From contig CM120641.1 of NCBI GenBank assembly GCA_051362555.1, positions 10,788,001 to 10,852,000 on the forward strand: DNA of 64,000 bases. The letters are read 5' to 3'. Numbering within the stretch: position 1 is the stretch's first letter; each line of letters begins with the position of its first letter. The translations under genes were made by a program, and so were the position numbers. The stretch comes from Lingula anatina (taxonomy: Eukaryota; Animalia; Brachiopoda). The notes under the pieces were generated by a model. It did no database searches and was not told where the DNA came from. It saw only the letters and a program-made list of their open reading frames with translations. Below are positions 13,681-63,672 of this stretch, piece by piece.

Positions 13681-14069
13681 GATGACTTCTTTAAATCAGC
13701 ATAATGCCAAGAATACCTAATTGACTTTTCAGGAAATTTAACACAGTCGCATCCTGAGGTAACTGTGACAGTGAAAGCTTCAGACGTTGAGCTTGCCAAC
13801 AGACCGGAAATGTGGCGATAAACAGGAAGTTGCGCGAGGGAGGGAATGTATGAATGGTTTCATTTTTGGAACACTCGGAACTCTTCAGATGTCTCGCGCA
13901 TTGCCGATTGTTTTTGGAAGAGACACTGTTTTGTCTTAAAACATTTAGACCTGGAACGTAAAGTTTTATGTCGGAGAACATATATATATGAAAGTCTTTT
14001 GTATAAACAGATGTGCATATTACTTCAGGTGCTACTTATATTAGTTTCACTGTCATAAGTCATATAAAC
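13681..14069. promoter_or_regulatory. Bidirectional promoter between LRRC14-like and RSAD1
   Basis: Divergent start codons 390 bp apart, CpG-rich, ETS-type sites ACCGGAAAT (~13803) and CAGGAAGT (~13823). Confidence 0.6.
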
Positions 14070-20232: not shown

Positions 20233-22366
20233 AACAAGGCAGCAAAGCTGTCAAATGTACAGACAAAAAACAGGAAATAACTATGCACAAAATAGGCTAC
20301 TGTCAATTCTGATGCAAAAATACATTATGTTAAACTGCAAATTCAACATCAAATTTTAATTATCCTCAACAATTAATACCAATGTAATTAAAATATGTGA
20401 CAAGTTTACATTTTGAAAATGTATAACTTCCAGAAAAAGAAGTTCCTTAGACTGCTTTTCCAACTCAGACTGCATTTTAGTCCTGTATTTCTTTTTTGAA
20501 AGTTTGGCAATCATAAGTAACATGGTTTTCCCATAATGGTCATCATGGCAGCAGCACCCAAAATTGTGTTTTCTTCTATTTTGATGCCATATTACATAAT
20601 GGTTAACAGAATAATGACCGTCAATTTTTAATAATAAAATATACGTATCATGGATTTTCAGAAAATGTGACTAGCATGGGTCTTCAAGCCCGTGGAACTT
20701 CAAAGTCACACCTTGAAAATGCCAATATGTGAAAAATTAAATTTTCACAAAATAACTGTTTAACTGGCAGCAAGAATTACCAAACAGACTGTATTTCCTA
20801 CTGAAGCTGTATTTTAGTCCCATGTTACTTTCCTGTAAGTTTGAGAACAGTAAATGACATGGTTTTTCTTAAATGGTCATCATGGGAGCAGTGCCCAAAA
20901 TAGTTTTTTTTTTTCAAATTTTGATGCAATATTACATAATGTTTAACAGCATAATGACCATCAACTTTAATAATAAAATATTAATATTATGGATATTCAG
21001 AAAATGTGACTAGCAAAGGTCTTCAGGCCCATGGAACTTCAAAGTCACACCTTAAAAATGCCAAAATGTAAACAAGACTGCACTGTTCTGAAATGGGTTT
21101 ATTTCCATTTTTAACCATTTTTAACATAAAACAAAATTAACAGTTTTCTGCCGTTTTTATATGATAAACTAAGAAAATTGATGAGATGGGAAAAATATCA
21201 ACAGAGCAGTGTTAAATGTCCAATCTCTTCCATTCTGAGATTCTGAACATAGTGAATGATTGAATCTGACAAACTGCAATGATATGAGTTTATTTCCATT
21301 TTTGAAACTTTATTACACAATACACGATAACAAGTTTACCATCATTTTTACATAATCAACTAATAATGTTGTAAAATTGCAGGAAATGCCAAACAAACAC
21401 TTTTACGTATCTTATTAGTTCAATAATGAAACTGTTTACAAACCTAAGAATTAAATCTGAGGAAATGTGAGAAAACTGCATTTCTTTAAAATAATGGCCC
21501 GATTATGCTGATTTTTGAACTCAACCTGCGTTTTAGCAGGAATGACCACTCCTGTGAGTTTAATGACAATTGGCCTATCTGTTTTTTCTTATATTGTGTT
21601 TACAGTGTTGCATTTATGCTGAAAAGTGAAAAAAAAAAGCATAACTACTAAAATAGTGGCCCGATCATGCCGATTTTCGAACTCAACCTGCGTTTTAGTA
21701 AACACGATAAGTGGAGGGCAGTTTTACTTTTTGGCATAATATTTACAGAGCTGATGAATATTCATAAAACGCAGGTCAAGTTCGAAAATCAGCATGATCG
21801 GGCCATTATTGTATAAGTTATGCTGTTTTTTCACTTTTCAGCAAATATGCAACCCTGTAAACATTTTGTGCATAGTTATTTCCTGTTTTTTGTCTGTACA
21901 TTTGACAGCTTTGCTGCCTTGTCTTATATTGTGTTTACAGTGTTGCATATATGCTGAACAATGAAAAAAACACATAACTACTAAAATAGTGGCCCGATCA
22001 TGCTGATTTTCGAACTTGACCTGCGTTTTAGTAAGATTGATTACTCCTGTGAGTTTCATGACAACAGGCCTAACGGTTTTCCTTAAAATGTGTTTACAAG
22101 GTTGCATATATGCTGAAAAGTGAAAAAACAGCATAACTTCTACAATAATGGCCCGATCATGCTGATTTTCGAACTTGACCTGCGTTTTATGAATATTCAT
22201 CAGCTCTGTAAATATAAAGCCAAAAAGTAAAACTGCCTTCCACTTATCGTGTTTACAAGGAAAGTGCACGGCGACGGCATCGGCATCGGCATCGCCATCG
22301 GCGACGGCGACGACAGACGCAGGTGATGGCAATATGTACAGACACATCTGTGTCTGTACATAAAAA
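20233..22366 (-). mobile_element. Helentron-associated / DINE-1-like non-autonomous element, copy 1
   Basis: Terminal hairpin TATGTACAGACAC-ATCT-GTGTCTGTACATA (22333-22362), (GACGGC/ATCGGC)n microsatellite, ~157-bp core repeats, matching subterminal repeat ATGTACAGACA near 20255 and short stem-loop GGCAGC-AAA-GCTGTC at the other end. Confidence 0.8.
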
Positions 22367-24403
22367 GTGATGAAATTTTTATTTCTGCTTAAAAATAATT
22401 TGTGTGTGAGAACAAAAGGAGGATTTTGGGTTTGGATTTCAAAGTGGTAGCCTGAGTGCACTAGAATGCTGTCAATAATACCGCTTTTGTTTTTCCCAAT
22501 GGAAAAATCAGTAAAATCCCATTTTTAGTTTTTTTTTCCCTTTGGAAAGAAATACATAAGATGGGTATTCAAAGTTTGCACTTATAATTTATGAAACAAA
22601 CAGGTACATTTCTACCATAAAATTAAACATAGGACTGCCCCAATATGAAAATTAATGCTGAGATAATGGCATCACTGTGGACCTTTGTATTTGCAATCAT
22701 CTTCGTCATGGTTACTGATTTTTTCTCTAATACATACTGATATAAAAATGCTCTTTTTTTTCAACAAAATATCAAAGTGCTTATTGCACAACTAACATGT
22801 ATACATAATTGAGGACAAAAATGTAAAATAAAAATGCAATGGATTAATAATACACTATGATAAGAAATGAAAACCAGGCAGGTGCATGTTCATAAATTCT
22901 GAAATTGAAACAAAATTAAATGCTGCTGTATAATACTGATTAAAAAATAAAAAAAAATAAAAAGCAATAAATTACACTTGCATCAATAGTACTGTTTTCA
23001 AATTGAATCTTTCAATATGCTATCATATACCTATTGCAGGTCTTAAAGGTAATTTATTTAACTGCAAACAATTTACTAATATTACAACATGCTAAAAAAA
23101 TCTCCTCCCATCTATTTCCACTTTGGTATGCAGAACTGATAAAAGCACCTGACCAAAGCCGTTTTTGCTATAGCAAATAAAATTTGATACACACCAAAAC
23201 ACAAGCTAGGCTTTCCCCCCTTTGTTTTGGCCTTAGATGGTACAAGGTGGTGCTATGCCCTCTTTAGGCCAGTGGCTCAGCTCATAGTATTCAATATCTA
23301 CTGCACTTAGCAATAAAATCTTGGTCAAGAGAGGATTATATTTATCCTTGCATGAGGGGCAATTTTGGGAAGTTTGGATGTTATATATATCCACATTTTA
23401 ATTCATTTTGGTATTCTAGTTGAAATAACTGTACCTCAAATGGGTTTTCTTCCAATAGTGCTTCCTTTATAGTTACTACACATACCTTTATAACTTTTTA
23501 AGAGAATGCATATTCAACCTTACCAAGATTGTCCCTTGACTGTCCTCATTTATTGTCTACTCTCATTTCAACCCAAATTGGGCTTCTTTGGGAAATTCTT
23601 TTTAGAAATCTGCAGGGGTAACATTTTTCTATCATTTCTATACAATGAGATAAGCTGTTCTTTATATAGTTAATTGAGAAATAAATAAACTTTATTAATA
23701 TACAAATGCAACGTAACATTCATTGTGTGATGGTTAGCAATGTTAAAATCACTCCAACTATAACTATCTATGATCAGGAAATCATTTAATTATAATTCAA
23801 AAACGTATTATGGTAATCAATTTTTTGTTACCTTGGGAACACATACTAGTAAGTCATCTCAATATACTTCACGAGTCTTTTATAAATTCAGAAATCAATT
23901 GTTAAAAATCATAAACATGATACAAATATGAGTTAAATAACATGGCAGTCTGACTGAAATGTCCCACACATTTTTAAATAAAGTCTTACATCCTAATGAA
24001 TGAGTTTTATTTAGAAGGAAAAGAACATGCCATCCAAGTTATTATTACTTGACTGTATAACTTTTTTCAAAGTTGTTTTAATGCAGTCAAATTGTGTCGC
24101 ATTTTACAAAATGACTTGAGTGGCACCTCTGGAAAGTTAAATTTATTTGAGGGAGCTAATCATTCATGAGGTCTAAAAAAGGTATTTGCTTGTGATATGT
24201 GCAGTCATATTAAAAAACACAGAACACCATGCCAACTTTGTTAATATTTTTTTGTGAAATAGGGCTCTAGATTTGCAATGTTCTTCTTCATATCAGTACC
24301 AATTCAGAGGTAATGTGAACACCATGTATATTGCACTATATTAGCTGATTTGTTTATCCTACTCCATATTACCACAATGTTAACACTCCACCATGATTCA
24401 TGA

Positions 24404-28152
<3,749 letters not shown>

Positions 28153-28854
28153 TTCAGAGAATAGTTCAATAGATTTATTCAACTTCACCTTTGTAACGAC
28201 GAACGGCCTTCTGCAAGTAAAATCCCTCTTACGTTCAGCTTTTCTCAAAGTTCTGTATAATATTCAAAACATTCGGCACGAAATAGTAGTTTAAAAGTCG
28301 ATATGCCCCAGAAAATGTGACTTCACATACTTCTCATAGTCAGGTGCAGCACTGCTCCCTAATGAATTTAAACGGATGCCACACGATCACAAATGAATAG
28401 AGCATCATCGCAAGGTGAAGGTCAACTTACTACTAAGATGCACAATTAATATGTCGAGATAAACAGAATATTATATATACAGAGGCTCACAATTGTTATT
28501 TTTGAATAAATATGTGAAGAAATAGCAATAAGTATTCATCTGATAAATTTACGAAATTTCCAAAGCAACGACCTTGCTCTCTAGTGAAAAGAGACGGAAC
28601 CGGAAAAAAAAGGAAAGTGCAAGTTAGTATAGTAGCATAATTGGGTTACTAATCGTTACCATTCACCCGGCATCAGGTCTGAAATTTAAATTGGAGGTGA
28701 CATATTCCTTTCACGGCTTTAGGACAGCCGCAACGGGTGAACTAAAACCGTATGAAAACTTACTCCAGGCAGTGCCATGTTGAGATAAGTTGCAAAACTG
28801 TACAACTACTGGTACAGCTAGTACGTAAAGCCGCAGCTATTCCCAAACGGTAAA
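28153..28854. promoter_or_regulatory. Bidirectional promoter region shared by FAM89-like and the HEPN-PGRP gene
   Basis: Divergent start codons ~700 bp apart, CpG-enriched relative to gene bodies, ETS-like ACCGGAAA at ~28599. Confidence 0.5.
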
Positions 28855-29370
28855 ATGGAAAGCTCTGGCACCATAAACCTCGGAAAATATGCAAGGCTTT
28901 GTTTTCTTGTCATTGAACTTGGGACAGAGGCAATGAGGCAGTATTTCAAGAAGATACTGCTTCCATCTGGTACATCTCTACAGCAGTTTCTCTCTAGTAA
29001 CAGAGTCATTTTAGAAGGCATGTTAAGCAAAAGGAAACTTAATAAGACCCAATTTGATTTGTTATTTCCTCCGGGAGGCACAATGCCTGTAACAAGTTTG
29101 AACAATTTTGATATCACACTTTTGTTTAGTTTAATTAGAGACCTGCACCCTAAGACGTCTGATGTTCCTGAGCCCAAATCTGATGTTTGGAACAACCTTC
29201 AGGCAGCCAGATCTTCTCCCAATCTACCAAGACAAATATTGGATCTGATTGAGATTAAATTTTATCGAAACAGTCTTGCACACTCGAAGTCAGTGAATAT
29301 TACAGACTCTGATTATGAAGTTATGTGGCAGTCAATCACAATCAGTGTACTCAACTTGGGTGTAACAACA
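28855..29370 (+). other. DZIP3/hRUL138-like HEPN domain
   Basis: YARLCFLVIELGTEAMRQYF start, QFDLLFPP, FDITLLFSLIR, and IKFYRNSLAH (R138-H143; 29266-29283) followed by ITDSDYEVMWQSI. Confidence 0.85.
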
Positions 29371-32300
29371 GAACAACTGGATTCTGTTAAAAACATAACC
29401 ATTGATCCAGAGAAGGAACAAGAATACATCACACGATTGAAAAACCAAGAACAGGAAGAGCAAAATTTAAAAGAAGGCTTGCATACCAGAATAAGACGAG
29501 TGGAACATGCCGTGACAGTCATTGTTGTCTTAGTGGTAGCAGCTAGCATGGGGATGGTTTTAAGAGACAAATTACCCAAATCTATTTTGGGTCTGATTGA
29601 CATGTTACAGTTTGGTATGGCTAATTTAGGATCTTTTTCTTTGCTTCTATTAACCTTTATGATAACAGTAGTGGGAGTAACATTGGTGAAGGAAATGTTA
29701 CAGCACCAGGCATCAAGGCTGCATGAAACAATAAAATGTGGTATGAAGCACAGAAAACAATTCACACATATAACACTGTTGGTAAAATTTTGTCTTGTAA
29801 AACTTACCGTACTAACAAATTGAGTACAAGTATATTGGCTTCAAGGGTCATTCCATATCAACTCATCCAGCGAGGGTACCCTCCGTCAAGAAAGTTGCTG
29901 ATTTTCACATATTTTGTAGATATTATAGGGACTAGAAAAAAACCTAAAATTTTAGATTGAGATCTCAACTGGTTTCAGAGTTATGACACTCCAAAGTTGG
30001 ACCCAGCTGAGGGCTTGCTGTGCCTCACATGAATGTAGGTCATGGTGACCTAGTTAAGAAAAACACTATAACAATAGTTCTGCATATCCCATTGCTTTGT
30101 AGCTTTCATGACTTTATATTTTAACATTTCAGGAATCCAACTATCACACTGAAAATGGTCTGGCATATTTAAAATGCACTTCATTTTCACTTTGAAAAAT
30201 CCTTGTCATTTTTTCAAAATGACAGACACCCCACCCTTTTAATCTAATTTTTCTCAATGTCTCCAAAGGGACAGGTGTTTTTGCTTTATCTCATATTAAA
30301 GAGGAGGCTTTGAACTTAAAAGTGAAAGTGTTAAATCAATTTGTATATTTTGGAGACAAAAGTAATAAAACATTATAAGAAAATATGTGATATGGGCTAT
30401 TGCATGGTCACTGATCCAGAACAATGTGCTATCAAACACCCAAATTTAGAAATATCTACATTAGTTTACCTGTTATCTTTCAGAATAAATTGCCTATGAT
30501 GTTGTTATACTATACAAATTTTTTTTTTGATGTGAATGAAATTGTTTTATGCAGATATTCTTTTAATTAAATTGACATCCCAGCAATAGACCAGTTTCCA
30601 TGTCTCCATCCATACCAACTTGTTGTCTCATGCCTTTTAAAAGATATTTAAAACCTAAATAAATAACCATATCATACATATGCCCATAAACTTATTGTTT
30701 TATTATAATGTACATGTTTATCTATTTATTTAAATGTCAAAATAGTTACATGTATATACATGTACAGAATGCTACAACTTTGTACAACTGTAACATGTAG
30801 TTTCAAGTTAACATTTTATCTTACATAACCTAAAAAAATATGATTTTTCCATAATAACTATTTTTATTTTAGTTAAAGATGATTAAAAAAAATTTAACCT
30901 ATGATACATAATATTAAAGGGACTTCTCACAAATTTTCCTTTGGCCACCCTGCATAATATTATATAATCTGCCAGTGACAGGAACAGGGATGATAATTTT
31001 GCAAAGTATATCATTTAATGGCACCCAGCAAATGCTTGCTGACCAAAGAAAATTCTGGGTGAGTAGATTATGTAAGATAAAATGTTATCCTTAGAATACA
31101 TTTAATGTAAATAGTTATACAAAGCATTCTGCATATTACCCCAACCTAATAGAGGTGAATTTCACATGCTGTAGTATTAAAAATATTACCAATTGAATTT
31201 TGAAATTGTAATCAATTTTTATAACCTGTGTGTAGTCTGTAGAACAAAAATGCATTGCTGTCTCAAATTTACTTATACATGCAATATTTATCATGTGTGT
31301 ACCATTATGTAAGAAGCCTAAATGGTACTGCGCACTCAACATGTACTGGTAATGGATGTTCCAGGTGATATAATATTTGTAATGATCCAGTCATGGGACA
31401 TTGTGATGTAAAGCTGATGTAAAGCTGACATAAGGATGTCTTTCAAAATATTTTAACTGTAACTCAAGGGGGTTTGCCATATGGTTAAAACATAGGTAAC
31501 TTATGTTTCCCAGAAAAATGTTCGAAAAAAAAGATTATTTTTGACCAAGTCCTTAGTGCAGTGGGTAAAAGGGTGTTTTGCTATCAACTGAAACATATAC
31601 ATAAAATGCACAGTGTTTGGCATTTCTGACATAATTTTTGCACCATATATAGAAAATAGTTCATTTTATGTTTCTTTTACTGTTAGCATGCTGCATTTGT
31701 ATTTATAAAATTCAGTGACAAACAAACTAAAATTGCAGCAAAAATTATTGTTCTGTAGAGAAGATTGCTATGTTTTTAACAACTTTATACAAATTGTAAA
31801 AATTAGATGATGAAATAATAAAAGAAATCAGCACTTATTGAGCTTGCAAAGTGAGCACAACACTTTCACAGTTGAAAATTTTCCATTTGTGACAGTAACA
31901 TTTGGGGTCAGACTATGAATTAACTTTTATGACAAGTGGTTCCAGGACAAACTTTGATACACACTTTTTCATGTGGGACCATAAGAATTACCAAACTTTG
32001 TTTCTAATCCATACATTGAATATTTTTGAGAGCAATGCCTCTAACATTATTTGCAGCTTTAGATTGGGTTTGGATGATAAACATGTAACTTTTCTGACCT
32101 ACAAAAAAGAAGAAAACATGTACATTAAAATAAAACAATAAATTTTTGGGCACATGTATAATATGGTTATTTATTTAGGTTTCAAATATCTTTTAAAAGG
32201 CATGAGACAACAAGTACAATGTAGGTTGGATGGAGACATGGAAACTGGTCTATTGCTGGGATGTCAATTTAATTAAAAGAATATCTGCATAAAACAATTT

Positions 32301-34263
32301 CATTCACATCAAAAGAAAATATTTTATAGTATAACAACATCATAGGCAATTTATTCTGAAAGATAACAGGTAAACTAATGTAGATATTTCTAAATTTGGG
32401 TGTTTGATAGCACATTGTTCTGGATCAGTGACCATGCAATAGCCCATATCACATATTTTCTTAAAATGTTTTATTACTTTTGTCTCCAAAATATACAAAT
32501 TGATTTAACACTTTCATTTTTAAGTTCAAAGCCTCCTCTTTAATATGAGATAAAGCAAAAACACCTGTCCCTTTGGAGACATTGAGAAAAATTAGATTAA
32601 AAGGGTGGGGTGTCTGTCATTTTGAAAAAATGACAAGGATTTTTCAAAGTGAAAATGAAGTGCATTTTAAATATGCCAGACCATTTTCAGTGTGATAGTT
32701 GGATTCCTGAAATGTTAAAATCTAAAGTCATGAAAGCAACAAAGCAATGGGATATGCAGAACTATTGTTATAGTGTTTTTCCTAACTAGGTCACCATGAC
32801 CTACATTCATGTGAGGCACAGCAAGCCCTCAGCTGGGTCCCACTTTGGAGTGTCATAACTCTGAAACCAGTTGAGATCTCAATCTAAAATTTTAGGTTTT
32901 TTCTAGTCCCTATAATATCTACAAAATATGTGAAAATCAGCAACTTTCTTGACGGAGGGTACCCTCGCTGGATGAGTTGATATGGAATGACCCTTCACTT
33001 TGTACATATACTGTACTTAAAATATTGAAGATGTAATATTCACTAATTATAGAGGATTATTTTAACAATATATTATATACAATATATTTTCTATGGTCAA
33101 CAGCTAATGAAATGCTTGTATTTGAAATAAAAGAAAAATGCATAGTTATCTTGAAAAGATCTTTTACAGGTTTTTCTGACCCTAGTACAGTGCAAATTGT
33201 CTCCAGGAGAGAATGGGGTGCCAGAGAAGCCTCCGGACCCATGAGCCCCTTGCTCATCCCAGTCAAGTATGTTATTATAGCGCACACAGTGTCTGGATTA
33301 TGCGAGTCCGTGGAAGCATGCTCAGGTATTTTACGAGGCATACAGCAAAGGCACATGGCTGATAGAGGTGAGATTCACTTTAAAGAAATGGGCCTATTGT
33401 AATATTATGATTTTTATATGATTTCAATTAAAGTGTCAAAATAATTTTAAACTGATGACATAGTCCAGTAGTGAAAAGAAGTATATGTACAATTTTATAT
33501 TTATTTTGATTTTTGTAAATATCCTGTAATGAGGTATGTTAACCTGCTCCGTGTACTCTGCTGTTACCATTCGAGCTGCCTGAAGCAAAATAATGTTTAA
33601 GTGTATACGTAAGTTAAAATAAAAGTTTTTTTTTCAGGTTGGTCAGATATTGCATACAATTACCACATAGCAGATGATGGCAGAGTATATGAAGGTCGGG
33701 GACCATCAATTGCTGGGTCACACACCAAAGGGTAATATATACAAAAAAAATGTCATGAATCAGATATTCTGTGCCTTTATCATCCAGAGTTATTTATATC
33801 ACTGGAAATGCCATTACTGTTTATGGTAATCTCTGCAACTCTTTGGCAACTTCGGTAGTCTGTGACCAACATTTTTCTATTCCCGTTTGACATGAAAAAT
33901 TCCTTTTTGTGGCTGTTATTATTTCAATTTTTTATTTCCCTTCATTCAGAAGCTTTTTTTTTTTTTTTTTTTTTTTGCTTAAAATATTACTAAGGTTTTA
34001 AGAAAAATTATATATCCTCACATTTCAGGTGGAATTTGAACTCTTGGGGCATTGCCTTCATGGGAGACTTCAGTTACCGCCTACCTAGTCCAAGGGCCTT
34101 ATGGGCTTTAAAGGCTTTTCTGAAAAACTCGGTAGAAAATGGTTTCTTAGATGAAAATTATGTACTGTTAGGGCACTGCCAGGTTGCTCCCTTTGCAAGT
34201 CCAGGAGACACACTGTACAGAGAACTTAAAACTTGGGATCATTGGCAAGACATCCATGCGTGA
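28855..34263 (+). CDS. Predicted membrane protein: DZIP3-type HEPN domain - coiled coil - TM (1 or 2) - non-catalytic PGRP domain. Exons 28855-29614 (or -29740), 33170-33367, 33638-33731, 34029-34263; 428 or 470 aa
   Basis: Exon 1 has FDITLLFSLIR and RNSLAH HEPN motifs and hydrophobic segments. Two phase-1 donors (G|GTATGG at 29615, G|GTATGA at 29741) fit the phase-1 acceptor TTTTACAG|G at 33170. Downstream exons encode a complete PGRP domain (IVSRREWGA, YVIIAHT, GWSDIAYNY, VYEGRG, GIAFMGDF, GHCQV, SPG). Confidence 0.72.
29844..32994. mobile_element. Foldback / long-TIR non-autonomous DNA transposon (PIF/Harbinger-like 3-bp TSD) in intron 1 of the HEPN-PGRP gene
   Basis: Arms of ~0.9 kb (29844-~30750 and ~32080-32994) are near-perfect reverse complements starting AGGGTCATTCCATATCAACTC; TCA directly flanks both ends; no transposase ORF seen. 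Confidence 0.85.
33170..34263 (+). other. Peptidoglycan recognition protein (amidase_2 fold) domain over three exons
   Basis: Canonical PGRP motifs in frame across GT-AG introns; stop at 34261-34263; AATAAA at ~34423 and ~34434. Confidence 0.93.
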
Positions 34264-35036: not shown

Positions 35037-38000
35037 TTAGTCACTATCCTCACTGTCGCTGTGAGTTTCTCCAAACAACTCCTGTCCGTTAGTAGCCTCA
35101 GCAAGTGATGAACCCTGTGTGTTATCAGCTGAATATTTTAAGGTAACAACTGTGGGAGAATTTGGAAGCCCAAATGCTATAGCAGTTCTATTCAATACAA
35201 CTTTTGAGCACTGTATCTTGACATCTGGAGTGAAGACTGAGAGAATTCCTTTTTTGAAATCCCAGAGAGATATGTCCTTGGCTAGCACCATTGCCTTACT
35301 GGAGTTATGCAGGATGTAGATTGTGGAGTAAATGTCTAGCTGGAAGCCTGTGTATGTTGGAAGCTTGTGCATGGCTTGGTTTTCTAAATCCCACCAAACC
35401 ATTTCATTGCAAATATTTCCAAAGACAACTTGTGTGGCACTGTCATTGATGGCAACTGCACATACCCCTTCTTCTTCTTCAAGTTTGGCATGAACTTTTC
35501 CCGTCATGCAGTCCCATACAACAACACAGCTGAATTTTTCAACATCATCATAGTAGGTGTGCACCAGGTGGCCACCAGTTGATGTCAAGGCAGATGTATC
35601 TAAGGTCAGAATTGCTTTGTCATCAACCAGCGTTTGAATGTGGCGCCCCCGTGTTATATCAAACACACACAGGTAGCATGAAAAGTATGAGGCCACTATC
35701 ATTTTTTCATCATCACTGACAAGAAACTGAGTAATCAAGTTCTCTTTCCCCTTTTTGAGTCCTTCTATGCGGTCATTTTCATCTTGAATTTCTCTCTGGT
35801 GCCTTCTTTGTCGACCAGTTTTGGTTTCTGATCTCCTTTGCCATGGTAACATTTTGGCAGTTGTACCCCTCTTTCTATGAGATGCGACTGATGACTTGAT
35901 TACATCAGAGAGTTTGGATCTGTCTTTATATATATTGAGGACTGTTTGGCCAGATTCTAAACTCCATATGACAAAGTGAGTCCTATCAGGAGATGGACTC
36001 ATAACTCTCTCACCATTTAGCATGAAATATTCATTTGAAAGGCCAACATCTATGTGGGCCCCATGCAAGATACGATCATACTGTCTGGTTTCCAGATTAA
36101 ACACAAGAATGGAGGTGAAATATTCTTCGTACTTGTTGATCATGCAATCTGTGAGGATAACAACATTCATGTTCTTCACCAGGAGAAGGTCCATGTCTTC
36201 TACTAAACCTCTCTCTGAACAGACAGCACTGATTTTACACTGAGTCTTGAACAAGTTCCACACTGTCACTGGCCCATTACAGTCCATTGGCTTAGCCACC
36301 ACATAGCGAGGATTATCATCCAGAATTGTAATTTCTTCAATGCCAACAACTCCCTGAACTGGCACTTTCTTGCTGAGACCGAGAGTGATGTCCCATACCA
36401 TAAGGTTGTTGGAAGCTGATGATGCAGTCACACAGTAGCTCAAATTCAGACATGCTGCCAGGTTTGTTATTCCAGAGTGATAGCCCAAATGTCTGTGTTC
36501 CTCAGTCTCCAAGTTCCAGACAGCTAGATAGGTAGCACCAGTTTTTTGAGAGCTTACCAAACCAATGGCATGAGATCCAGACTTGTTGAATTCAACATCT
36601 TGAATACTGGCATCCATAGCACAACCTTTGATGGTTCGGATGTACAGACCAGTGCTGTTGTCAAAAATTTCAAAAATAAAGTGGTCATCACAGTGACAAG
36701 CTAGCACAAAGTACATGGGAGTTGTTCCAACAGCTCGTAGCCTTGCAGCAATGTCATTGATGTTGATAGTGTATGCTAACTGGCCAGTGTGAACATTGTG
36801 TGCATATGCTTTAGTGTCACCACGGAAACCATGCAAAATCTGGTCTCCATAGGTACAAGAGGATACTGTTGTTGATCTTCCTCTGTGGGCTGAAAGGGTT
36901 ACTTCTTCTTCATCAGGAATTTCTTCAACAGGTGGACTTTTATCATCTTGGCTACCTTCAACCAAATCCTCTTCATCTTCTTCTTCCTCTTCCAGCATCT
37001 GCCATATCTGAACCTTGTTCTTTTGTTCTTGTTCCATCTTCTGTTTTCTAGCTTTTTCTTCCTCTTCATTCTTTTCATCTTTTTCCTCTAAGTGAAAGGA
37101 GTTGACATGTGTCACTTCACCATCCAGATTCCACACATGCATGGTTTCTCCACCATCAACAAAGAGTAACAACATTGTTCCATTAGAAGCTGTTGTTGGG
37201 ATCACGTAATCCTCAAGTTGTTCTATTACTCTGACAAGATGACCTTTTTCCAAACTCCAAATTTGCACAGAATAAGTCTCACATACAATGGCATACCTGT
37301 CCTGCATGGCCATTTTAATGTGATATGCTTCTTTCCCAACTCCTTTGATTGTCTTGGTAACTCTTCCAGTTTGAAGATCCCAAAGTTTCAGGGTGTTGTC
37401 AAGGGATGCTGATACAGCTTGTTTGCCAGAATTGGTGACTGTCACAGCAGTGATGGCCCCATGATGTCCACCTAACTCTAATCCAGTCAAGGAACCAGGA
37501 GGTAGAAGGCATGTGGCAGAGGGAACAATAACTGGGATAGAACTTTTTGCAGCAGCATCCAACAGAGCAGGAAAGTGTGGGTACTTTCTTGGATCCTCAG
37601 AAGTGGCTGGGACATCTTTTGCCATTATGTCAAAAAGTCTTCCAATCAGTTGTGAAGCAAGCTGATGGGGATCCTTTGTCAAAACATGACAACCTCGTTT
37701 GAGAGACTCTATGACTAAATAAAGTTCCATGTCAGAACCTTCATCACTATTACTGGATTCAGCTTGGTGGTAATCATCCAGCAGCTCCCACAGGGAAGTG
37801 GAACACAGTTTAGCCAGTAACCACTCATAGTTGAGAAGACATTCAGTCTTCAGCAGCAGGGTCTCTTGTGCCATTATCAAATGGTGTGGAAGCTCATTCA
37901 GGAGTCTCAGGTTGTACGATCTTTTGATTTCCAATCCATATGTGCCTTCTTCTACATGCTCATAACACCCTGACTGTTTTCTGTACTTCTCAGTATCAGA

Positions 38001-41000
38001 TGACTCTTCCAGAGGCCTGCCTAAGAAATATGCTGCCATTGCCTTGTGGTATGACACTAATTCTTTGCCCTTCAGGTACATTTCTGCGTATGCTTCTTGG
38101 AAAGACCAGTGTGCCCATTTGTACAACAGTTGCCCTCCATCACCAAGGATCTTGGTAACATATCCTGCATCTGTTAAGTTGTTGAGGAGACGCACCAGAA
38201 TAAAACTTGGAAGCCTTGGAAAGGAAGATTTGTTCAAGGTTGACACAAACTCCATAACTCTGGAATCCTGGGTGAGTAGTTCATGTAATTCACTCTGGGT
38301 TAAGCCATTTTTGGCTGTGCAAAGAAAACCAAAGGTGCGTCTCACCAAAAGTTCCCCATGTACTTTAGCTAGATGACCAGCAAAATTGAATGCCATGGTT
38401 CGTACAGTCTTGCCAAGCTTCATTTTGTTGTGTGTGAAGGAAGTCCACTTGCAGGCTTCTCTGAACACCATATACACAAGAAGGGGGGTAGTTTCTGGCT
38501 GGAATGCCTCTAATACTACATCAAGTTGGGCATCTGTAACACATCTGCCTTCCTCATGCAAGTAGTGGTAGAGCATATTGGAAGCAGCTTCTTCGGACAA
38601 TGGAAGGATTTCAAGGAACTTTTCTGCAGGAATCTTTTGTTGGAGAAAATTCATTATTTCACTTCCTGTATTCATCGACAGCACGATGTGAACATTGTCT
38701 GGTAGTTTGGAAGGGATCCAAGACTGAAGGTCATTTGCAGAATCTGTAAATCACACAGTTTATACATAAAAATTACCCTAAGCATTGAATCATTTATTCC
38801 ACGATCTGTTAGAAATTTAGATTCTGTCCCCAATACAAAAAAAAAAAAAAATTATGAGAAAACCTCCATGATTACAGGTGGAATACAATGCTACAGCTTA
38901 AATCTTTTCAATACTTCAGATATGCTGGCTATTATTTTTCTATGTTTACTATGGTATGTAATATTTCAAACACTTACCCTGTTCTAATATCAACCTGTCC
39001 AACCCATCTAGAATAATGAGAAGTGGTTTATCTGTATTTGCATGGGACAGCAAGTCGTCAAATTCATTCATCAGCCATTTCAAATTCTGGAAAAAAATTA
39101 TCAATTTTCAACATTTTGTTCATACTACACACTGCATATTGGAAACAATTGTTGCCCATTGCTGTAGGATTCCAGAAAGTATTCATGGCATGAAATTTTA
39201 ATTTCAGCCCACATATCAAATATATTTAACCTAAAAGCTCTGTATCATTCCATTCAAAATATTAAACAATCTAAACTTTCCTTTTTTTATGTTTTTTTGC
39301 CTTATCTAAAACTCTATCACCAAGACCTTAAATTTCTCAACATTATTAACCTACAGTCAATTTTCTCACCATTTATAATGCAATCAGTATGTTTTATACA
39401 TAGCATACTTAAGCAATTAAGGCAACCAATCACAACTGATTTCTTTTAAGTTTTTCAAATTTGCTCTCAAACTAGTAAAATAAAATGCCTTATGAGAGTT
39501 AAAGAGAATACCATTCATGTATGGAAGCATAACTTACCATGCTTTTCAAATCGCTTGTATTCAAGTTGAATATCTGCCTTAGTTGGAAGCACAGCCCCTG
39601 AAGCAAAGTATGGAAGCTGGTGGACATGGAAGTATGACCAATACTCCGGAACAGCACCCTGAGGTCCTCCCTATGTATTAAAATTATAACAATTTGTCAA
39701 CCAAAATGCTTGATTCTGCTACACAAAGGAACCTGAGAGAAGCAAGCTGCAGTGCATTTATTTAACCTTAACTAATGTGCATCAAATATCAAGATGTCAA
39801 TTGGCATGGCACACTGGCCAGTGTATCAAATATATAGCTGACTATACAGAGTTAAAGGTGAAGCATCTTTTCAGTTGCCTGTTGTTGTCTAAACAATAAC
39901 TGCAATGTTTTTTCTACCTTTTCATCCACTCTGTTGCTGAACAAGCAATGGTGGATAGCAAAGAAGATGTGCCCATCCCTGGCTTGCCATGTACAACAAT
40001 TGGTGAGCTTCTGGTAGACCACAATAAATTTCTTGTCGAATGAAGTTGATCACTTCTTCCATAGAATCTCTTTGCCCTAAATATAAAATAATTAGCACTA
40101 TGTCTGACACTGTGAACCTTTTTCTGCTTTGTTTGTTTGATAATTATAATTATTTAAGGTAATAATTCGATTCAACAGAAGTAAGTGTCATAATATATAA
40201 TTGTCATACATGATAATTACAAATCAGATAAAAATGAATAACGGAATAAAAAAATACCCTAGGCTTACCTTTCAATGCAAAAATTAGCATGCTGGACAAT
40301 GTCAGTCACATGCTTCTCATATACACCACTCAAGCTATTAATTGAACTTGCAGTGGCATATGGAAGGCTTTCTATATAGTGCTCTACCACATCTTGGAAG
40401 CTGCGACACATCTTCTTTGCATATATATTGTGCTCCCTATTTTTCGGACGATTGCCTTCAGGGTTGAATCCATCAAATGCCCAGGGAATCAAGAAGCGAT
40501 GGTAGTGGTTCTTGGGAAGCTGCATAAAAATGTCATCAATGTATAAGTCTATATAACTTGCAGCTTACCATTTGTATTTGAGGCTGAAAACTGTTCCAGT
40601 TAAAATAATCACTTTAAATAATTTAACACACACACACACAGCTGCCATATCACCCTTGCAATTGACCACTCTCCCTCACACAAACACATAAAAATCTCCC
40701 CATTTCTCCCCCATACTGATCTTTACATCATCTTTTCATCCAATATTTCCCTACCTCAACCATGCACATCTTGTCCACCAGTTCCTGTAATGCAACATCT
40801 TTATCTGGATCCTTGGTCCCAGGCTGAATCAGGTCCACATAGTCTCCAGCTTTGCTGTCTTGGAGTTGAATGTCACTGAAACATCTGTAAAACCAGGCAC
40901 AATTCTGGTGGTTCTCATTCTCAAAGAATCCTCGACTGTTTTCCTCTTCTTGTACTGTAAATGTGGACAGTTACAGAAAAATCAGCCATTCAATATCAAA

Positions 41001-43207
41001 ATACCACAGAATAGTAGGCTATGCTATAATACCATATGGGATACACTGATGATTATAATTAAACTGTAGATAAAAGCCAACCTAAACTTACTTAGGTTAA
41101 ATATGTTACTTCTAACAGCGTCTAAAATGGTCATTTATTAGAAGGGTAAAATACATCATACATTCACCGACCATAAACTGTAATGCTGACTCATTTGGAA
41201 TTTCAATTTAAACCAAATATTTCAGTTTTATCAAAAAATGTTTCAGTAAAAATTAAATCAGAATTTTAAAAATCTTCCTCATTTTATACTTTTAAAACCA
41301 GTTACCATCTTCAGCTATATTACCAATGTCTATATACGTACATGAGATGCATAGTTTTCTTATTGTTCTCTGGTCGACCTTGGCCATCTTGCTGTACTTA
41401 TGCAGGACACCCAACAGTCTCCTTGCAGCATGCTGCCACTGGTCCAGGGCAAGTTTGACTCTACTGGCATCCTTCTCAGTGAAGTCTGGGAAGTGAGCAC
41501 TAAAAATAAATAGCAAAAGATTAAACTATAATTGCAATGTGGAGTGGAGGTTAGCCATAGGCATTTTTCAATTATTTTTACCCATCATGAATTGTGTGTA
41601 AGGGAGACAATTAATCTGATAAAAATCATTTAATTGTGATTATAATATAAATATAAAATAATTTATTGTGATAAAATTATTACAACTTATTTTTAATGAT
41701 AAATAAAAATAATAATAATTGCAATACTTAAAATGTTTAACTTGATATAATGCAATTACAGTTCATATGATTGAAATTTATTCTGAAATTTGTACCTAAT
41801 CATTTTCATTATTTTCATATATTTTACAACAATATTTCAAGAAGCATTAAGGAAGAAATAACTTAAAAGTGTTTCTCACCTGATATTTTGTAATCTGTAT
41901 ACATGTGGTGAGGTGTTGGTGTCAAGAGCGTAGCACTCCTGCAGGAGTTCCAGGTCCTCCAAGCCTTGGAAAGGGTTTTCTTGTATACCTTCATTTTCTT
42001 GAGTTCTAATAGCCTGAAGTCACAAGGACAAATATGACATGCTTGTAAAGACACAAAAATGAGCTATTATGCAAGAGATTAAGTACTTATTTTACTTTTT
42101 GATTAGATAAATGTTTCACATGCTAGCAATCAAACATGTCTTTACACATCTGCATGAAGTAGAAGTTCTATAAATTTTGAGGTTTATCTATATTATTAAA
42201 TTCTTCATTGTAATGTTACAGCAATGCAATGAAAAAATAGAGATATGAAATTGAATATTTCAAATGAGTAACATTGATTCATGTGAGTTAGATAAAACAT
42301 GGATACTGGGAAGGATGGTAAAACTCAAATCATTACACTTGATAGCAACTCAGAGAAGAATAGAGATAAATAAAAATTTTCAACCCCTCACATATACACT
42401 AACACAAATATTTAATGACTGCTTGTTAACTATATAAAGAGATGCACAATCTATAGAGGTCAAAATGACAAATATATGCCCAGTTACAAATTAGATCACA
42501 AAAGTATTGCTAGACAAAATCATACCTTCACTGCTTTAGCCTTTTGAGGTTTTAAATTGAACGTAAGACAAAATTAATTTTAATCAAAGAAAAACAAAAT
42601 GTCATTCCAATTTGTACATTTACTACCATGTATCATAGATAAAAGGCAATTAGTCATAGCTTGCTGTATAAATCTATCCATAAGTGAAAAAGAATAAAAC
42701 ATAAGTTCCAGAGTTCAAATAATTATTTTTTAAAAAATACCAGAAAAAACCTTGATATTTCATCCTAAGATTACCGAATGCTTCATATAAAACTAGAAAT
42801 AGTTACTAACAAAACCTACATGTAAAGCTTTTTAAACAACTGTAAACATGCATCTTTTTGTGTACTATTAGCATAAATTTTCATGAGAATGTTGTGCAAT
42901 TTGAGATGGTTATTGGTAACTTTATTCAAGTCCTGTTTTATAATCTAATGCAATTTCTAACTGCTAATCAAGCACAATATTCACAGTAACATGCAGCAAT
43001 CCAAAACTCAAAGACTGACAGCCAATATATCATGATATTAAAATTGCTGATATCTATAGATGTGTAGATAGACTGTCATGCTGTGTCTTATCTTAAAGGG
43101 ATAACAATTGTTCATTTGGAAAAAAGGGATTTTCCTGGGGTAAATGACAATATTTCCATACTTACCAATGGTTAATGAATTTGTTCTGAACTTCTGACAT
43201 ATTCCAT

Positions 43208-43250
<43 letters not shown>

Positions 43251-46200
43251 TAAAAAGTTTGCTCTTAAGAGATTATTATCTGTATAACAGAGGGTAGCCA
43301 TCTATGGTGGTAAAACAGAATTAATTTTATTATATTACTATGAGTTGTTTGGAATGAATTTATTGGGAAATATGGATCTCATACGATGAGAACGTAGGTA
43401 TCCCTTTAAGAAAGTTTACTTTTAATGTGAAATGTGACTGCAACATATCTTCATATCATATAAATTCCTATCTACAACAAAGATGTTGAAAACCAAATTG
43501 TAGAGAGAGAGAGAAAAGACACAGATTCCATTAGCAAGTCGAACAACATTTTTTAGATACAGATATCTATTTATATCTCTAAACAGGCTTTTAAAACTAT
43601 TACATCAAGCTCAAACAGTTTACCTTGAAAACCATGGTCTTGTTATTAACAATAAAAAGCTTGTAAATGACCATCTTAATTCTTTGAGAAAGTAGAGTTA
43701 TTCTATTAACTATTTTCCTTTACATCAAGAATATAATGAAAACAGCACAAAAAACAAGTGCAGCTTTTGCTTTCTTTGTGGTGACTTATAAAATACATAA
43801 ATGTAACTGTAACTACCCAATCTCATAGTGTCTCCTTTCACTTTAAATTCATAGTTGAAATGAAGTGAAGAATGCATTAAAGAAAGAAGCAAAACATGTA
43901 CAAAAAGTTTTTTAAAAAATTTAAATATAAAATTCTCTAGAAAAAACTTACCACTTTAGCAATGGCTGCTAACCCTCCCATTCCAGATGAAAATGGATTC
44001 TGCAAACTACGTCTAGGGGAGGGCGCATATGAGGGAACACTTGGATTAGATGCACTTTTCTTCATTTTAACCACTATATCTTGACTGCTTTCCCTGTTTT
44101 TCTGATTGGTCAACTGCATAATCATCTCTTTGGGATTAGCAATGGACAAGTGCCGTGTTTGCTCAGTAACAAAATTTGCAATTTCTGCATCACGCTCTTT
44201 TTCAACTGCACTGAGAATGGCTTCAAATTCCTCCTTACTAAATACAGTTGGCAGGTTGGGATGGCCATACTTCTCTGATAGAAAAGACTGTAACGATAAA
44301 ATTTTTGAAATATTAAAAATTTAAATAAAAAAATATATCTCAAAACTGCCATAATATAAAATAGTATCTAAGTTAAACTTCATTTTGATTTATTAATCAC
44401 ACAAGAAATAAGTAATTTAAAAAAAAAACTCAATCCAAAACAACTTTTTAGATCAATCAGATAAAAGTCTTAATTAAACAAATGGGAAAATAACAATTTG
44501 ATAAAACATACAATAAAATTGAGTCCATGTTTCTCCAGGCAACACTCCAAAGCCCTCCTACAAGTTTCTGCATAGCTGTGATCATCAAGAAACAGCCCAT
44601 TAATTCCCCAGTGGAGATCCAGCAACTGAAGCTCATAGCCTTTTTTCTGTGCCAAATTTTGTAGATAAGGGTAGACTGAGTTTGTAAGGAGTTTTCCTTC
44701 TCCAATTGTATCTAAAAATGTCAGAATTTTAACAAATTATAGTACTTAGGCTGATACATGTACTGACATCATTTAAAAAGCAAAAAATAACAAGTATCCT
44801 AAATATATTAAGATAAAAATTACTTTGAAATTTTTCATATATAAAAAATTTACAACTTTCAACAGAATTAAAATCCTTCTCTCTTTCTAAATAATGTTCC
44901 TCTCTAGGGTTGTCCATTTGTCAGACAATGCTTACAACTGGAACTTTTAATTGTAACCTTTTAACCTTATTATAATCTGAAGCAATTTTCTGACATAATA
45001 ACATTAAAACTACATTATTCCAAGCACTCCTTTAGGCAAGCTGATGTTTGTTTAAGCCAGTTAGTTAGCAAACAATGTAGACCCGAATATATGCTTTGTG
45101 CAATTTACTATTTGTTCAGCTCACTACTAACAATTGCCCAGACGTGTTGTTATGGGCAGAATGCATTGGAAATATTTTGCACGATACACTGTCAGATACC
45201 TGTTGACGTGCTGCTGATATAAATCCTTAAAATGTTTTCTTCTGTGCAGTAAGGGGTGTGCAGTCTTCCTTTCAACATCTCCTCCCTTATTTCCGTCCGT
45301 GACATTTCAGCAGGAAATTTCAACCTGCTGTTCACATTAGTGTCCTTTGGTTGGAAATCAGTGACAGTGGTTTCATTAGAACTGTTGAAACTTTGAAAAG
45401 AGCAACTTGTAGCACCTGACATCATCTGCTGGGTAACAAATGCTTTTCTTTTTTTAGAAGCAGATAATTGCTTTAGTTGTCCAGTGGGGTCTCTACCATC
45501 AGCAGAGTAGTCATTTTCTGCATGAAGCTCAATTCCAGAATCTCTCTTAGGAACAATATCTGGTAAAGGTGCTTTTTCTTTATTGAAAATGACATTTCCA
45601 TTTTTATCCCCACTTACACTGCCACTTGGTAGTGACTGAATACTGTCTAATGAGGAAATACTCTGAGACTCAAAACTATTGCCCAAAGACGGCAGGGAAG
45701 CTGATATTTTATCTCCTTGTAGTCTGTAAATTATGTCAACATGCAAAGATTCATGAGAAATTGACTTCCTGCGATCATTGGGTTGTAGTCTTGTGAGCGG
45801 TGACAAATAATAATTATCTTTTGGCAGGAGACTGTCTGATGGGCTGTTGGTCTCAGATCGTGCCCGTCTGTGAGACTGCTTGTGTACCGAAGGCTGTATT
45901 TTCATCCCAAACTCATCATACTGATCAAGGATAGGTTTGAATTTTCTTAAAACTTTCTGAAATATAGGATTAAAAATGAACATGTTGACATAAATGTAAA
46001 TTAATGATTTTACAATGTCAGTAAATCAAATGAGTGGCATAATTCAATAACATTTTTAATTAGCAACTTTTGATAATTACTCATAATTTACACATGTATG
46101 CAGACATTAGGTTGAATTCATAACCAAAATCCCCTTTTATAAATATCGTATCTTCAGTTTTCCAACCCAGCATTTAATCAAGATAATAATAATATTTACC

Positions 46201-62700: not shown

Positions 62701-63672
62701 TCAAGAGTAGCAGCAGTATCCGCTGGAAGATGCTGCTTGGATTCAGCTGTAGAAACAGATTGCTACTCACTGGAACACCCATACAGAATAGTATGGCTGA
62801 GGTAAATGGATATGTTTTTTTCTTCAGTATGTCATTTCACTTTTTTTTGCAGTTCACAGTCAGTCTTGTCGGAAATTTGTATGGGGCCCAAGTATTTTTC
62901 TTTTTGTGCTAAATATTCTTTAAATAAATAAATTGGCACATTCAGTGGTTCAGGCAAGAGTTATGGTTTGTCACAAAATGGGTGTTAAAAGCATTACCAT
63001 GAAGTTCATAAATGATTTTCATTTTAAAATAAATCTCAACAAGGATTCAGTGAACATGTCAAAGCCTTTGCTTGAACCTCATATTGACATTTTAGAATCA
63101 GCATTAACCTTTTTTCTTGCTGTAACAGGTAAGTTTTGATAACTGAAAATTATTTACTTAAATTTTATTGATATACTTTTTAAATGCCTTTCCAGCTGTG
63201 GGCTCTTCTGCATTTTATCATGCCTACGCTGTTTGATTCCCATGATGAGTTCAATGAGTGGTTCTCTAAAGACATAGAGGGAAGCGTGGAGAAAATGTCT
63301 GGCATGGATGAAAGTATGTATACTTATGCAAAAGCAACTTTCTTTATCATGTTTGTCACTAAGAGTGCTACCTTTTATCATGTATTCAACACATCTTTAT
63401 TTAAATCCTTTTGATTTAGGTGTTCGATTTAATAAAGTTAGCTCTTTTAATATAACACTTAAAGTGACTAAATCTTCTTTGCTGTGAATTAAAAATTTTT
63501 ATTAAAATAGTGCATCTTATAGTATCCAAATTATCCTGGCAGGAACTGATTTCTTTGTGCTTTAAAGTGATTGTTTTTCCTTCCAGATTGCCTGTCAAGA
63601 CTTCACATGATATTAAAACCCTTTATGTTGAGAAGAGTGAAAAAAGATGTAGAAAATGAGCTCTCTGATAAG
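56770..63672 (+). CDS. INO80: Chromatin-remodelling ATPase INO80, 5' part (about 18 exons; continues beyond the window)
   Basis: [15 protein letters not shown]-terminus, [23 protein letters not shown] region ([22 protein letters not shown]; [19 protein letters not shown]), [71 protein letters not shown]. Confidence 0.97.

Follow-up and report, generated by a model that had tools for sequence, protein, structure and literature searches.

PGRP-LC and PGRP-LE multimerise on their ligand, and PGRP-LB carrying the C160S substitution loses its Zn yet still binds peptidoglycan (PMC8124813, in the text available). The membrane PGRPs of brachiopods and molluscs are described as being without the insect-type RHIM motifs – at least in the portion of PMC9835746 that deals with them – and would need another route for signalling. 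HEPN domains, in turn, share the consensus R-[DNH]-xxx-H and require dimerisation for catalysis, according to bioRxiv 10.64898/2026.05.28.728550. For the HEPN_DZIP3 family, RNase activity appears as a prediction only in the available parts of PMC9646362, PMC3710099 and PMC8662601.

Both kinds of domain meet in one gene of the brachiopod Lingula anatina, located in a window of 64,000 nucleotides (GCA_051362555.1, contig CM120641.1, positions 10,788,001 to 10,852,000) that is numbered here from its first letter on the forward strand. RefSeq already holds both isoforms, as the uncharacterised LOC106156274. Its frames, all on the forward strand, stay open across exon 1 (28855–29614, or to 29740), exon 2 (33170–33367), exon 3 (33638–33731) and exon 4 (34029–34263), giving proteins of 428 or 470 amino acids. 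The short form of exon 1 encodes a HEPN domain, a charged helix and hydrophobic helix 1, and its donor after 29614 is in phase 1; the alternative extension of 42 codons (29615–29740), spliced from the distal donor, carries hydrophobic helix 2 and, in all eight reads of run X8, a frame-keeping 9-nt insertion at 29713. Exons 2, 3 and 4 supply the N-terminal third, the middle and the C-terminus of the PGRP domain, the last with the stop. Since sense reads start in the 28514–28754 bins, a 5′ UTR lies upstream of 28855.

Exon 1 and the PGRP exons form a single expressed, spliced gene, as raw reads from eight of nine available RNA runs – chosen by species label, with some 6–30% of each run read, at low depth – make plain. 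The joint 29614>33170 (GT..AG) occurs in all eight runs (25 reads: 1, 1, 2 and 4 in the first four, 3, 6, 4 and 4 in the second four), and the joint 29740>33170 in three of the four runs of the second set (10 reads: 2, 1, 0 and 7), being absent among the joints listed for the first four. The 270-bp intron is spliced in seven of the eight runs and the 297-bp intron in all of them. An earlier note on this DNA had thus been right that exon 1 splices in frame to three PGRP exons, and the reads join HEPN to PGRP where that note had also allowed for separate transcripts; nor is there, among the listed RNA joints or loose ends, any first exon belonging to the PGRP exons themselves, for which the note, too, had seen no evident start. 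It had given 29614 or 29740 as the donor and had missed that both are used. Expression of the gene is modest, at about one-tenth of the neighbouring gene’s depth in runs X2 and X3.

Intron 1 holds a DNA transposon (29844–32994, no strand assigned) that is spliced out. The insertion of 3151 bp has inverted arms of ~920 bp, 96% alike, is flanked on both sides by a 3-bp TCA duplication and has no coding content, the ORF list containing none of 100 amino acids or more inside it; it looks PIF/Harbinger-like. The distances given in the earlier note hold: 175 bp separate its end from the acceptor, and without it the intron measures 275 bp when counted from the distal donor. That the transposon made the fusion can be rejected, since the intron around it would, if emptied, be similar in size to the neighbouring introns, and distant relatives have the same fusion.

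The N-terminal domain, which the earlier note had described as a DZIP3-type HEPN with an intact RNSLAH motif, does score as one: PF18738 is matched over residues 40–191 (28972–29427, forward strand) with E 4.3e-34 and 117.8 bits against a curated cut-off of 27, at profile positions 2–144 of 144. The motif (residues 138–143, with R138, N139 and H143; 29266–29283, forward strand) fits the R-[DNH]-xxx-H consensus and is predicted to be catalytic. The model gives the N-terminal part a folded, helical domain at approximately residues 9–181 (pLDDT 80–95 per 10-residue block); the overall pLDDT was 90 with a 54-row alignment and a poor 41 without one. In a structure search, the best rows for residues 1–187 were the HEPN proteins AbiF (8vz6; Z 6.7, rmsd 5.3, 154 aligned) and Csm6 (4rgp; Z 6.2, rmsd 3.8, 113 aligned), with Roquin, EiCsm6 and Swt1 at Z 4.6–5.0 amid unrelated helical rows – all below Z 8, a level that is not decisive, and from a query larger than the domain alone. 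The HEPN half had no sequence match in the PDB, where by sequence no relative of any HEPN_DZIP3 domain is solved, and an ESM Atlas search with the whole protein gave no usable match.

Beyond the HEPN domain lies the charged helix (residues 185–215; 29407–29499, forward strand), a possible stalk or coiled coil. Its roughly 30 residues correspond to the coiled-coil-like stretch previously proposed, but the model makes it continuous with hydrophobic helix 1, as an unbroken helix of residues 185–235 that runs through the membrane segment. The hydrophobic helices also expected in exon 1 are there: helix 1 (218–236; 29506–29562, forward strand; Kyte–Doolittle 2.40), a predicted signal-anchor that is the only one in the 428-residue isoform and aligns with the single TM of five relatives, and helix 2 (260–278; 29632–29688, forward strand; Kyte–Doolittle 2.30), which the 470-residue isoform alone has in addition. 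From hydropathy, we infer that the 428-residue form would be a type II membrane protein, with HEPN in the cytosol and PGRP outside or in the lumen. The Lingula protein shows a weak difference in charge between the two sides of helix 1 (+4/−2 vs +3/−1), and its PGRP half has no glycosylation sequon; the five relatives have a clear basic bias on the N-side of the TM and sequons past it, both of which fit the predicted type II topology.

The PGRP domain passes the cut-off for PF01510 (Amidase_2; 47.6 bits against 26), and its model is close to known structures: Foldseek matches it to PGRP-LE at E 9e-19, it superposes on TCT-bound PGRP-LE at 0.7 Å, and it aligns with amphioxus PGRP3 at Z 30.2 and rmsd 1.1 over 168 residues. 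With sites assigned by spacing and motif, the amidase set of Zn ligands (His, His, Cys) plus Tyr retains H292 (exon 2), Y326 (exon 3) and H400 (exon 4), whereas S408 (exon 4) replaces the Cys, at H+8 like H152/C160 in PGRP-LB; R340 (exon 3), at Y326+14 like R92 at Y78+14 in PGRP-LB, is the predicted DAP-contact Arg. An active amidase is rejected, given S408 at the position of the Zn-ligand Cys, and the domain is predicted to be non-catalytic, binding peptidoglycan without cutting it. A Pfam scan at E 0.5 found no RHIM family, a profile that cryptic RHIMs can escape.

HEPN_DZIP3, a TM and PGRP occur together, at 27–33% identity, in at least five other 50%-clusters – three Lingula paralogue groups, one protein of the annelid Owenia fusiformis and one further protein – among the best 150 of 12,686 matches, 60 of them Pfam-scanned. 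These numbers are a lower bound, from protein databases only and from a word-indexed search insensitive enough to miss several of its own query rows. An additional N-terminal Death domain is found in three DZIP3-type relatives and is common to Owenia and Lingula at 44% identity; the Pfam scan detected none in the LOC106156274 protein. In Mytilus and Mya, PGRP is joined to a Cxorf38/DUF4559-type HEPN, with no hydrophobic helix in Mya and two and one in the two Mytilus genes. The two HEPN types are weakly alignable (hhalign probability 12%, 65 columns around the motif), and the bivalve fusion is probably independent of the DZIP3-type one. The motif, as R-[NHD]-xxx-H, is kept in all six Death-less genes, from two HEPN families, and in one of three Death-bearing genes – a small contrast between related genes – and the Zn-ligand Cys in none of the nine examined (eight Ser, one Asn).

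In a quick PGRP tree, six of the seven DZIP3-type rows fall together with a single unfused one (SH-aLRT 87, unstarred) and P0128 sits elsewhere on a long branch, so that a single origin is not established; the bivalve HEPN-fused PGRP domains stand apart from the DZIP3-type ones. In the HEPN tree, fused and unfused rows part at 98/95; it was not counted as a test of monophyly because its 11 unfused rows are a narrow sample that lacks solo HEPN proteins from brachiopods and annelids, and 12 near-duplicates were left out. Exon 1 and the PGRP exons both look selected. The 25 listed coding differences, confined to the divergent runs X7–X9 and taken from 80 rows among 80 + 152, comprise nine synonymous and six replacement changes in exon 1 and nine and one in the PGRP exons; against ~22% synonymous sites this corresponds to p 0.002 and 1e-5, respectively, without transition correction, and exon 1 accumulates more replacements than the PGRP exons.

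LOC106156274 probably encodes a membrane-anchored innate immune receptor and may be a peptidoglycan-clustered membrane RNase, a reading to which we give an even chance. With HEPN in the cytosol, the 428-residue form would expose PGRP outside the cell or in the lumen, and the second helix of the 470-residue form would bring PGRP back to the cytosolic side, so that one gene could survey the two compartments through its two splice forms. Like PGRP-LC and PGRP-LE, the receptors would gather on polymeric DAP-type peptidoglycan, and two RxxxxH motifs of the clustered HEPN domains would form a composite RNA-cutting site. Cleavage of the host's mRNA, tRNA or rRNA would then either stall or kill the cell exposed to bacteria, or set free a signal that acts downstream, and the Death-domain paralogues would be an adaptor-recruiting branch of the family. 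A one-component sensor–effector, as the earlier note had suggested, is favoured by an architecture found in two phyla, the probably independent bivalve fusion, a non-catalytic pocket in nine of nine genes and the motif kept in Death-less members; the paralogues with a Death domain and a decayed motif tell against it. So do the middling structural matches of the HEPN part, the weak charge bias across helix 1 together with the missing sequon, the larger share of replacements in exon 1, and the consideration that an RNase is an odd response to an extracellular bacterium.

Those same paralogues make a non-catalytic signalling role possible: two of the three Death-bearing relatives keep HEPN without RxxxxH, and the domain therefore has a role without catalysis. 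It is conceivable, if on the unlikely side, that LOC106156274 is a peptidoglycan-clustered signalling receptor in which HEPN is an oligomerisation or RNA-binding scaffold, recruiting adaptors directly or via the Death-domain paralogues for NF-kB or caspase signalling. HEPN_DZIP3 takes the Death-domain slot in invertebrate NLRs (PMC9646362 and PMC8662601, in the parts available), and spiralian transmembrane PGRPs without RHIM require another output (PMC9835746, with the same restriction). A pure scaffold, however, would have no need of a motif that is intact in six of six Death-less genes from two HEPN families, and the LOC106156274 protein is itself without a Death domain.

The RNase could also be active but switched otherwise, as a dimer that is pre-formed or auto-inhibited and not assembled by peptidoglycan; the continuous helix would transmit the change in conformation that opens it, or proteolysis would release it. 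The modelled helix of residues 185–235, unbroken across the membrane segment, would suit such a switch, and there are parallels in human CXorf38, in which a downstream helix has been proposed to be auto-inhibitory (bioRxiv 10.64898/2026.05.28.728550, in part), and in RnlA, which alternates between dimers (PMC8266594, likewise in part). We nevertheless consider it distinctly unlikely, as multimerisation on ligand, described for PGRP-LC and PGRP-LE, is the simplest purpose that a non-catalytic PGRP could serve, and the Mya protein lacks a membrane helix through which a change could pass. More improbable again is a decoy or scavenger, damping or presenting the peptidoglycan that it binds, with HEPN as a passenger and exon 1 serving chiefly as promoter and membrane anchor: the faster change in exon 1 and the modest expression would agree with it, yet the synonymous excess extends to residues 1–215 (six synonymous, three replacement, among the rows listed for X7–X9), and the architecture is kept from brachiopod to annelid and turns up again, motifs intact, in bivalves. 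That annotation merged two adjoining genes on paper is scarcely credible: the 3.2-kb transposon between the halves, the stop of its own that read-through exon 1 reaches at 29823, and run X1 with a depth of 15 at 29370–29583 yet one joint read would speak for it, but 35 junction reads from eight runs and three studies, together with five full-length relatives, refute it as the principal account, though a minor transcript with HEPN alone may exist.

The literature searched gave no description of a HEPN–PGRP fusion; Gerdol et al. 2018, on Lingula immune genes, is cited for brachiopod transmembrane PGRPs and may cover these genes, those with a Death domain included. The supplementary architecture lists of PMC9646362 and PMC8195603 may bear on novelty. 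The earlier note knew of no characterised PGRP with this architecture; it had missed that the gene model was already public and that paralogues with a Death domain and a decayed motif exist. Our broader proposal, tentative and short of an even chance, is that spiralians have a class of antibacterial receptors, each a single component whose RNase peptidoglycan would directly activate. The class would have arisen at least twice, with a DZIP3-type HEPN before the brachiopod–annelid split and with a Cxorf38-type HEPN in bivalves, and in LOC106156274 the choice of donor, by adding a second membrane helix, would move the sensor inside the cell. Spiralian membrane PGRPs would thereby have the RHIM-independent output that has been missing, and the bacterial logic of ‘sense, dimerise, cut RNA, die’ would extend to animal antibacterial immunity; if ligand-gated, the receptor would be an RNase by which an animal responds to bacteria, and might serve as a modular biosensor. 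The family offers two candidate outputs, HEPN RNase and Death domain, on a single scaffold with single-residue controls, and, because its likely ligand is known and purchasable, the simplest handle on the activity of the widespread invertebrate HEPN_DZIP3 domains, which are predicted RNases. The mussel version belongs to a farmed species and is already named PGRP1.

That protein (Mytilus galloprovincialis PGRP1, AJQ21530.1) and Mya arenaria LOC128244635 share with the Lingula protein an RNxxxH HEPN, zero to two hydrophobic helices and a Ser-type PGRP, but their HEPN is Cxorf38/DUF4559 and their PGRP is placed elsewhere in the tree; they are named as PGRPs or called uncharacterised, and nothing more. 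The DED/TRADD-N receptor-like proteins of Crassostrea virginica (Kaur et al. 2021, PMC8195603, as far as its available text goes) are likewise spiralian and predicted to be transmembrane, with Death-like domains inside and, in some of them, HEPN as a variable effector; they differ in a Cys-rich ectodomain and in a reversed domain order, and the main text mentions no PGRP, peptidoglycan or amidase. The HEPN_DZIP3-NACHT proteins of bivalves, corals and other invertebrates have the same HEPN family in the same N-terminal effector position, interchangeable with Death domains and with Rx4H kept (PMC9646362 and PMC8662601, in part; P0199, P0206). They oligomerise by a cytosolic NACHT ATPase, whereas the Lingula sensor would be a PGRP across a membrane helix. 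Ire1, too, is a membrane protein. Ire1 and RNase L combine a sensor and a dimerisation-requiring HEPN-type RNase on one polypeptide (PMC3710099, in the part available), as the Lingula protein would. The latter differs in having no kinase – only HEPN_DZIP3 and Amidase_2 pass the cut-offs, and 428 residues leave no space for one – and in its HEPN family, its N-terminal RNase, its predicted type II topology and its ligand, which would be bacterial wall instead of unfolded protein (Ire1) or 2-5A (RNase L). With PGRP-LC and PGRP-LE it shares a non-catalytic PGRP domain (41–42% identical, rmsd 0.7–0.8 Å in the model) with Arg at the DAP position and, with PGRP-LC, the C-terminal PGRP behind a membrane helix; its two splice forms may mirror that membrane and cytosolic pair, and where these have a RHIM-bearing tail it has a folded HEPN domain, with a predicted enzymatic output.

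The gene at 28855–34263 on the + strand opens with a reading frame of 322 codons, beginning at the ATG at 28855, which is followed by a 3151-bp insertion – bearing inverted arms of ~920 bp, 96% alike, with TCA on each side – and then by three small exons. Joined in silico from a GT donor at either 29614 (proximal) or 29740 (distal) to the AG acceptor at 33170, and onwards through 33367>33638 and 33731>34029, these exons stay open for 428 residues with the first donor and 470 with the second, and both frames end at 34263. Once the insertion is removed, the intron from the distal donor measures 275 bp, the size that the earlier note had estimated. Pfam recognises HEPN_DZIP3 at residues 40–191 (E 4.3e-34), in agreement with that note's assignment of the N-terminal domain, and Amidase_2 in the C-terminal part.

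Eight of nine RNA runs available under the species label, each read to ~6–30%, were mapped to the window, and the proximal joint 29614>33170 occurs in all of them (1, 1, 2 and 4, and 3, 6, 4 and 4 reads per run). The distal joint 29740>33170 appears in three of the four runs of the second mapping (2, 1, 0 and 7 reads) and is absent from the joints listed for the four runs of the first; no donor into 33170 other than these two is found among the joints listed for the eight runs. The proposed in-frame join of one HEPN exon to three PGRP exons is thus borne out by open frames and junction reads alike: the fusion is real and expressed, and its architecture is conserved. In the stranded runs, + strand reads begin in the 28514–28754 bins, and the depths of exon 1 and exon 2 are alike in runs X2 and X3 (7–14 versus 8–9). 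Runs X7–X9, several per cent divergent from the window, share the splicing pattern, and X8 carries a 9-nt frame-keeping insertion inside the distal-only segment of exon 1. Run X1, with a depth of 15 at 29370–29583, 0.13 in the next bin and a single joint read, counts against a clean splicing picture; its coverage there may come from a short transcript with HEPN alone, or be noise in the library. Among 34 coding differences – a selected part, beside 152 further rows – 25 are confined to X7–X9, with 9 synonymous and 6 replacement differences in exon 1 and 9 and 1 in the PGRP exons, against a synonymous share of sites of ~22%; these counts are indicative only, because the rows are selected and transitions uncorrected.

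A head-to-head gene (24404–28380, - strand) starts at most a few hundred bases from the 5' end of the HEPN–PGRP gene; its reads stop at 28373–28382 and splice at 27848, with a depth of ~90 in X2 and X3, and a promoter common to both genes is possible. Its exons, without a Pfam match at E 0.001, are presumably FAM89/LURAP-like, and one intron holds dense direct and inverted repeats (20233–27403, unit ~159 bp) that produce spurious ORFs. The tail-to-tail neighbour, an NWD1/NWD2-like winged-helix and WD40 protein (35037–46025, - strand), ends ~780 bp beyond the PGRP stop. Farther away lie exons of an Ig-domain adhesion protein (748–4682, - strand), of an LRR protein that we take to be LRRC14-like (10899–13695, - strand) and of a remodeller, presumably INO80-like (59485–62912, + strand).

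The PGRP domain shares 41–42% identity with PGRP-LE, LCx and SA; in the predicted structure (mean pLDDT 90) it superposes on TCT-bound PGRP-LE at 0.7 Å. By motif and spacing, H292, Y326 and H400 correspond to Zn-site residues of PGRP-LB, and Ser408 occupies the position of its Zn ligand Cys160, a Cys missing from all nine distinct HEPN–PGRP genes compared. According to the accessible part of PMC8124813, PGRP-LB C160S loses Zn and retains peptidoglycan binding, and an Arg 14 residues past the Tyr touches meso-DAP; R340 is its counterpart here. The domain is accordingly placed only as a predicted binder that would not cut and would prefer the DAP type. On the effector side, RNSLAH matches the consensus R-[DNH]-xxx-H, two copies of which, in the portion of bioRxiv 10.64898/2026.05.28.728550 available, are required together for HEPN RNase catalysis. 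The top structural rows for the modelled domain are HEPN proteins (AbiF, Z 6.7; Csm6, Z 6.2), scores alone too low to decide, and comparison with PDB sequences found no solved structure related to the HEPN half. RNase activity of DZIP3-type HEPN domains stands as a prediction in the accessible parts of PMC3710099, PMC9646362 and PMC8662601. A 780-aa protein (P0068) has three tandem HEPN_DZIP3-like domains, the first with an altered motif, which could form an intramolecular pair.

Among the best 150 of 12,686 matches in a 50% cluster library, five other clusters align end to end with the subject protein: three Lingula paralogues, Owenia fusiformis CAH1777915.1 and one further protein. HEPN_DZIP3 and Amidase_2 are Pfam-confirmed in all five, three of which add a Death domain at the N-terminus, and each has a single strong hydrophobic helix with basic residues ahead and sequons behind. 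Death-bearing proteins from Owenia and Lingula can be aligned along ~510 residues at 34% identity and group at 92/90 in the HEPN tree, from which we infer an origin before the brachiopod/annelid split. Lingula members occur as near-identical pairs on different contigs (P0003, P0063/P0173, P0064/P0174), probably uncollapsed haplotypes; P0003 has its first residue at the position matching M77, perhaps because the model is truncated.

Proteins of Mya arenaria and Mytilus join PGRP to DUF4559, which we take to be the Cxorf38 family. That family is entered as an active HEPN family in a table of PMC3710099, as far as the accessible part goes. The bivalve motifs are RNNMAH, RNKIVH or RNKVFH, with zero, two or one hydrophobic helices. 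Their HEPN domains align weakly with the DZIP3 type, and in a quick tree their PGRP domains fall elsewhere, so that the fusion is likely to have arisen independently. Mytilus edulis XP_071153567.1 (P0179, 1003 aa) contains two tandem DUF4559–TM–PGRP units, probably two merged adjacent genes, with two and one hydrophobic helices, mirroring the two splice forms of the window gene.

Since the folded domain comes first, the single-helix 428-aa isoform would most simply be a type II membrane protein whose HEPN faces the cytosol and whose PGRP lies outside or in a lumen; in the two-helix 470-aa isoform both domains would sit on the cytosolic side. This topology is read from hydropathy and relatives, the charge bias across the helix being weak in the subject protein. 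PGRP-LC and LE multimerise upon ligand, as the accessible part of PMC8124813 has it. By analogy, peptidoglycan would cluster the receptors through their PGRP domains, bringing HEPN motifs into pairs that would cut RNA in the exposed cell – a mechanism plausible and directly testable, on an architecture of known parts in a new combination, and in our judgement evenly poised between right and wrong. Across nine related genes, the R-xxxx-H motif is kept in all six without a Death domain versus one of three with it, the pattern expected, in small numbers and related genes, if catalysis is the output wherever the adaptor is absent. The same comparison shows that a HEPN domain can persist without the motif, and a non-catalytic scaffold acting with Death-domain paralogues such as LOC106153404 and LOC106168506, set against the intact RNSLAH, is unlikely and still deserves some weight. 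A pre-formed or auto-inhibited HEPN dimer, opened by means other than ligand-driven multimerisation, we think rather improbable. A decoy, compatible with predicted binding and at odds with a kept motif, is very doubtful, and an artefact, for all the uneven coverage of X1, is scarcely credible beside joint reads in every run.

Both isoforms are already RefSeq models of an uncharacterised gene, LOC106156274 (isoform X1, 470 aa, five residues different from the window's long form; isoform X2, 428 aa), and 'peptidoglycan recognition protein 1' is the name given to an almost identical model of 352 aa that lies on a different contig; the gene model is thus known, and the new part is its reading. The literature covered contained no published description of a HEPN–PGRP fusion, and an earlier mention of these genes, for instance in Gerdol et al. 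2018 or in supplements, is possible. Molluscs and brachiopods have transmembrane PGRPs, and RHIM-bearing ones were not found there, in the accessible part of PMC9835746. HEPN effectors are already in print for invertebrate NLRs and predicted oyster transmembrane receptors. The sensor resembles that of PGRP-LC, whereas RHIM was not detected in the subject protein. In logic the gene is like Ire1 and RNase L, yet it is not a member of that group, having no kinase, a different HEPN family and the reverse domain order.
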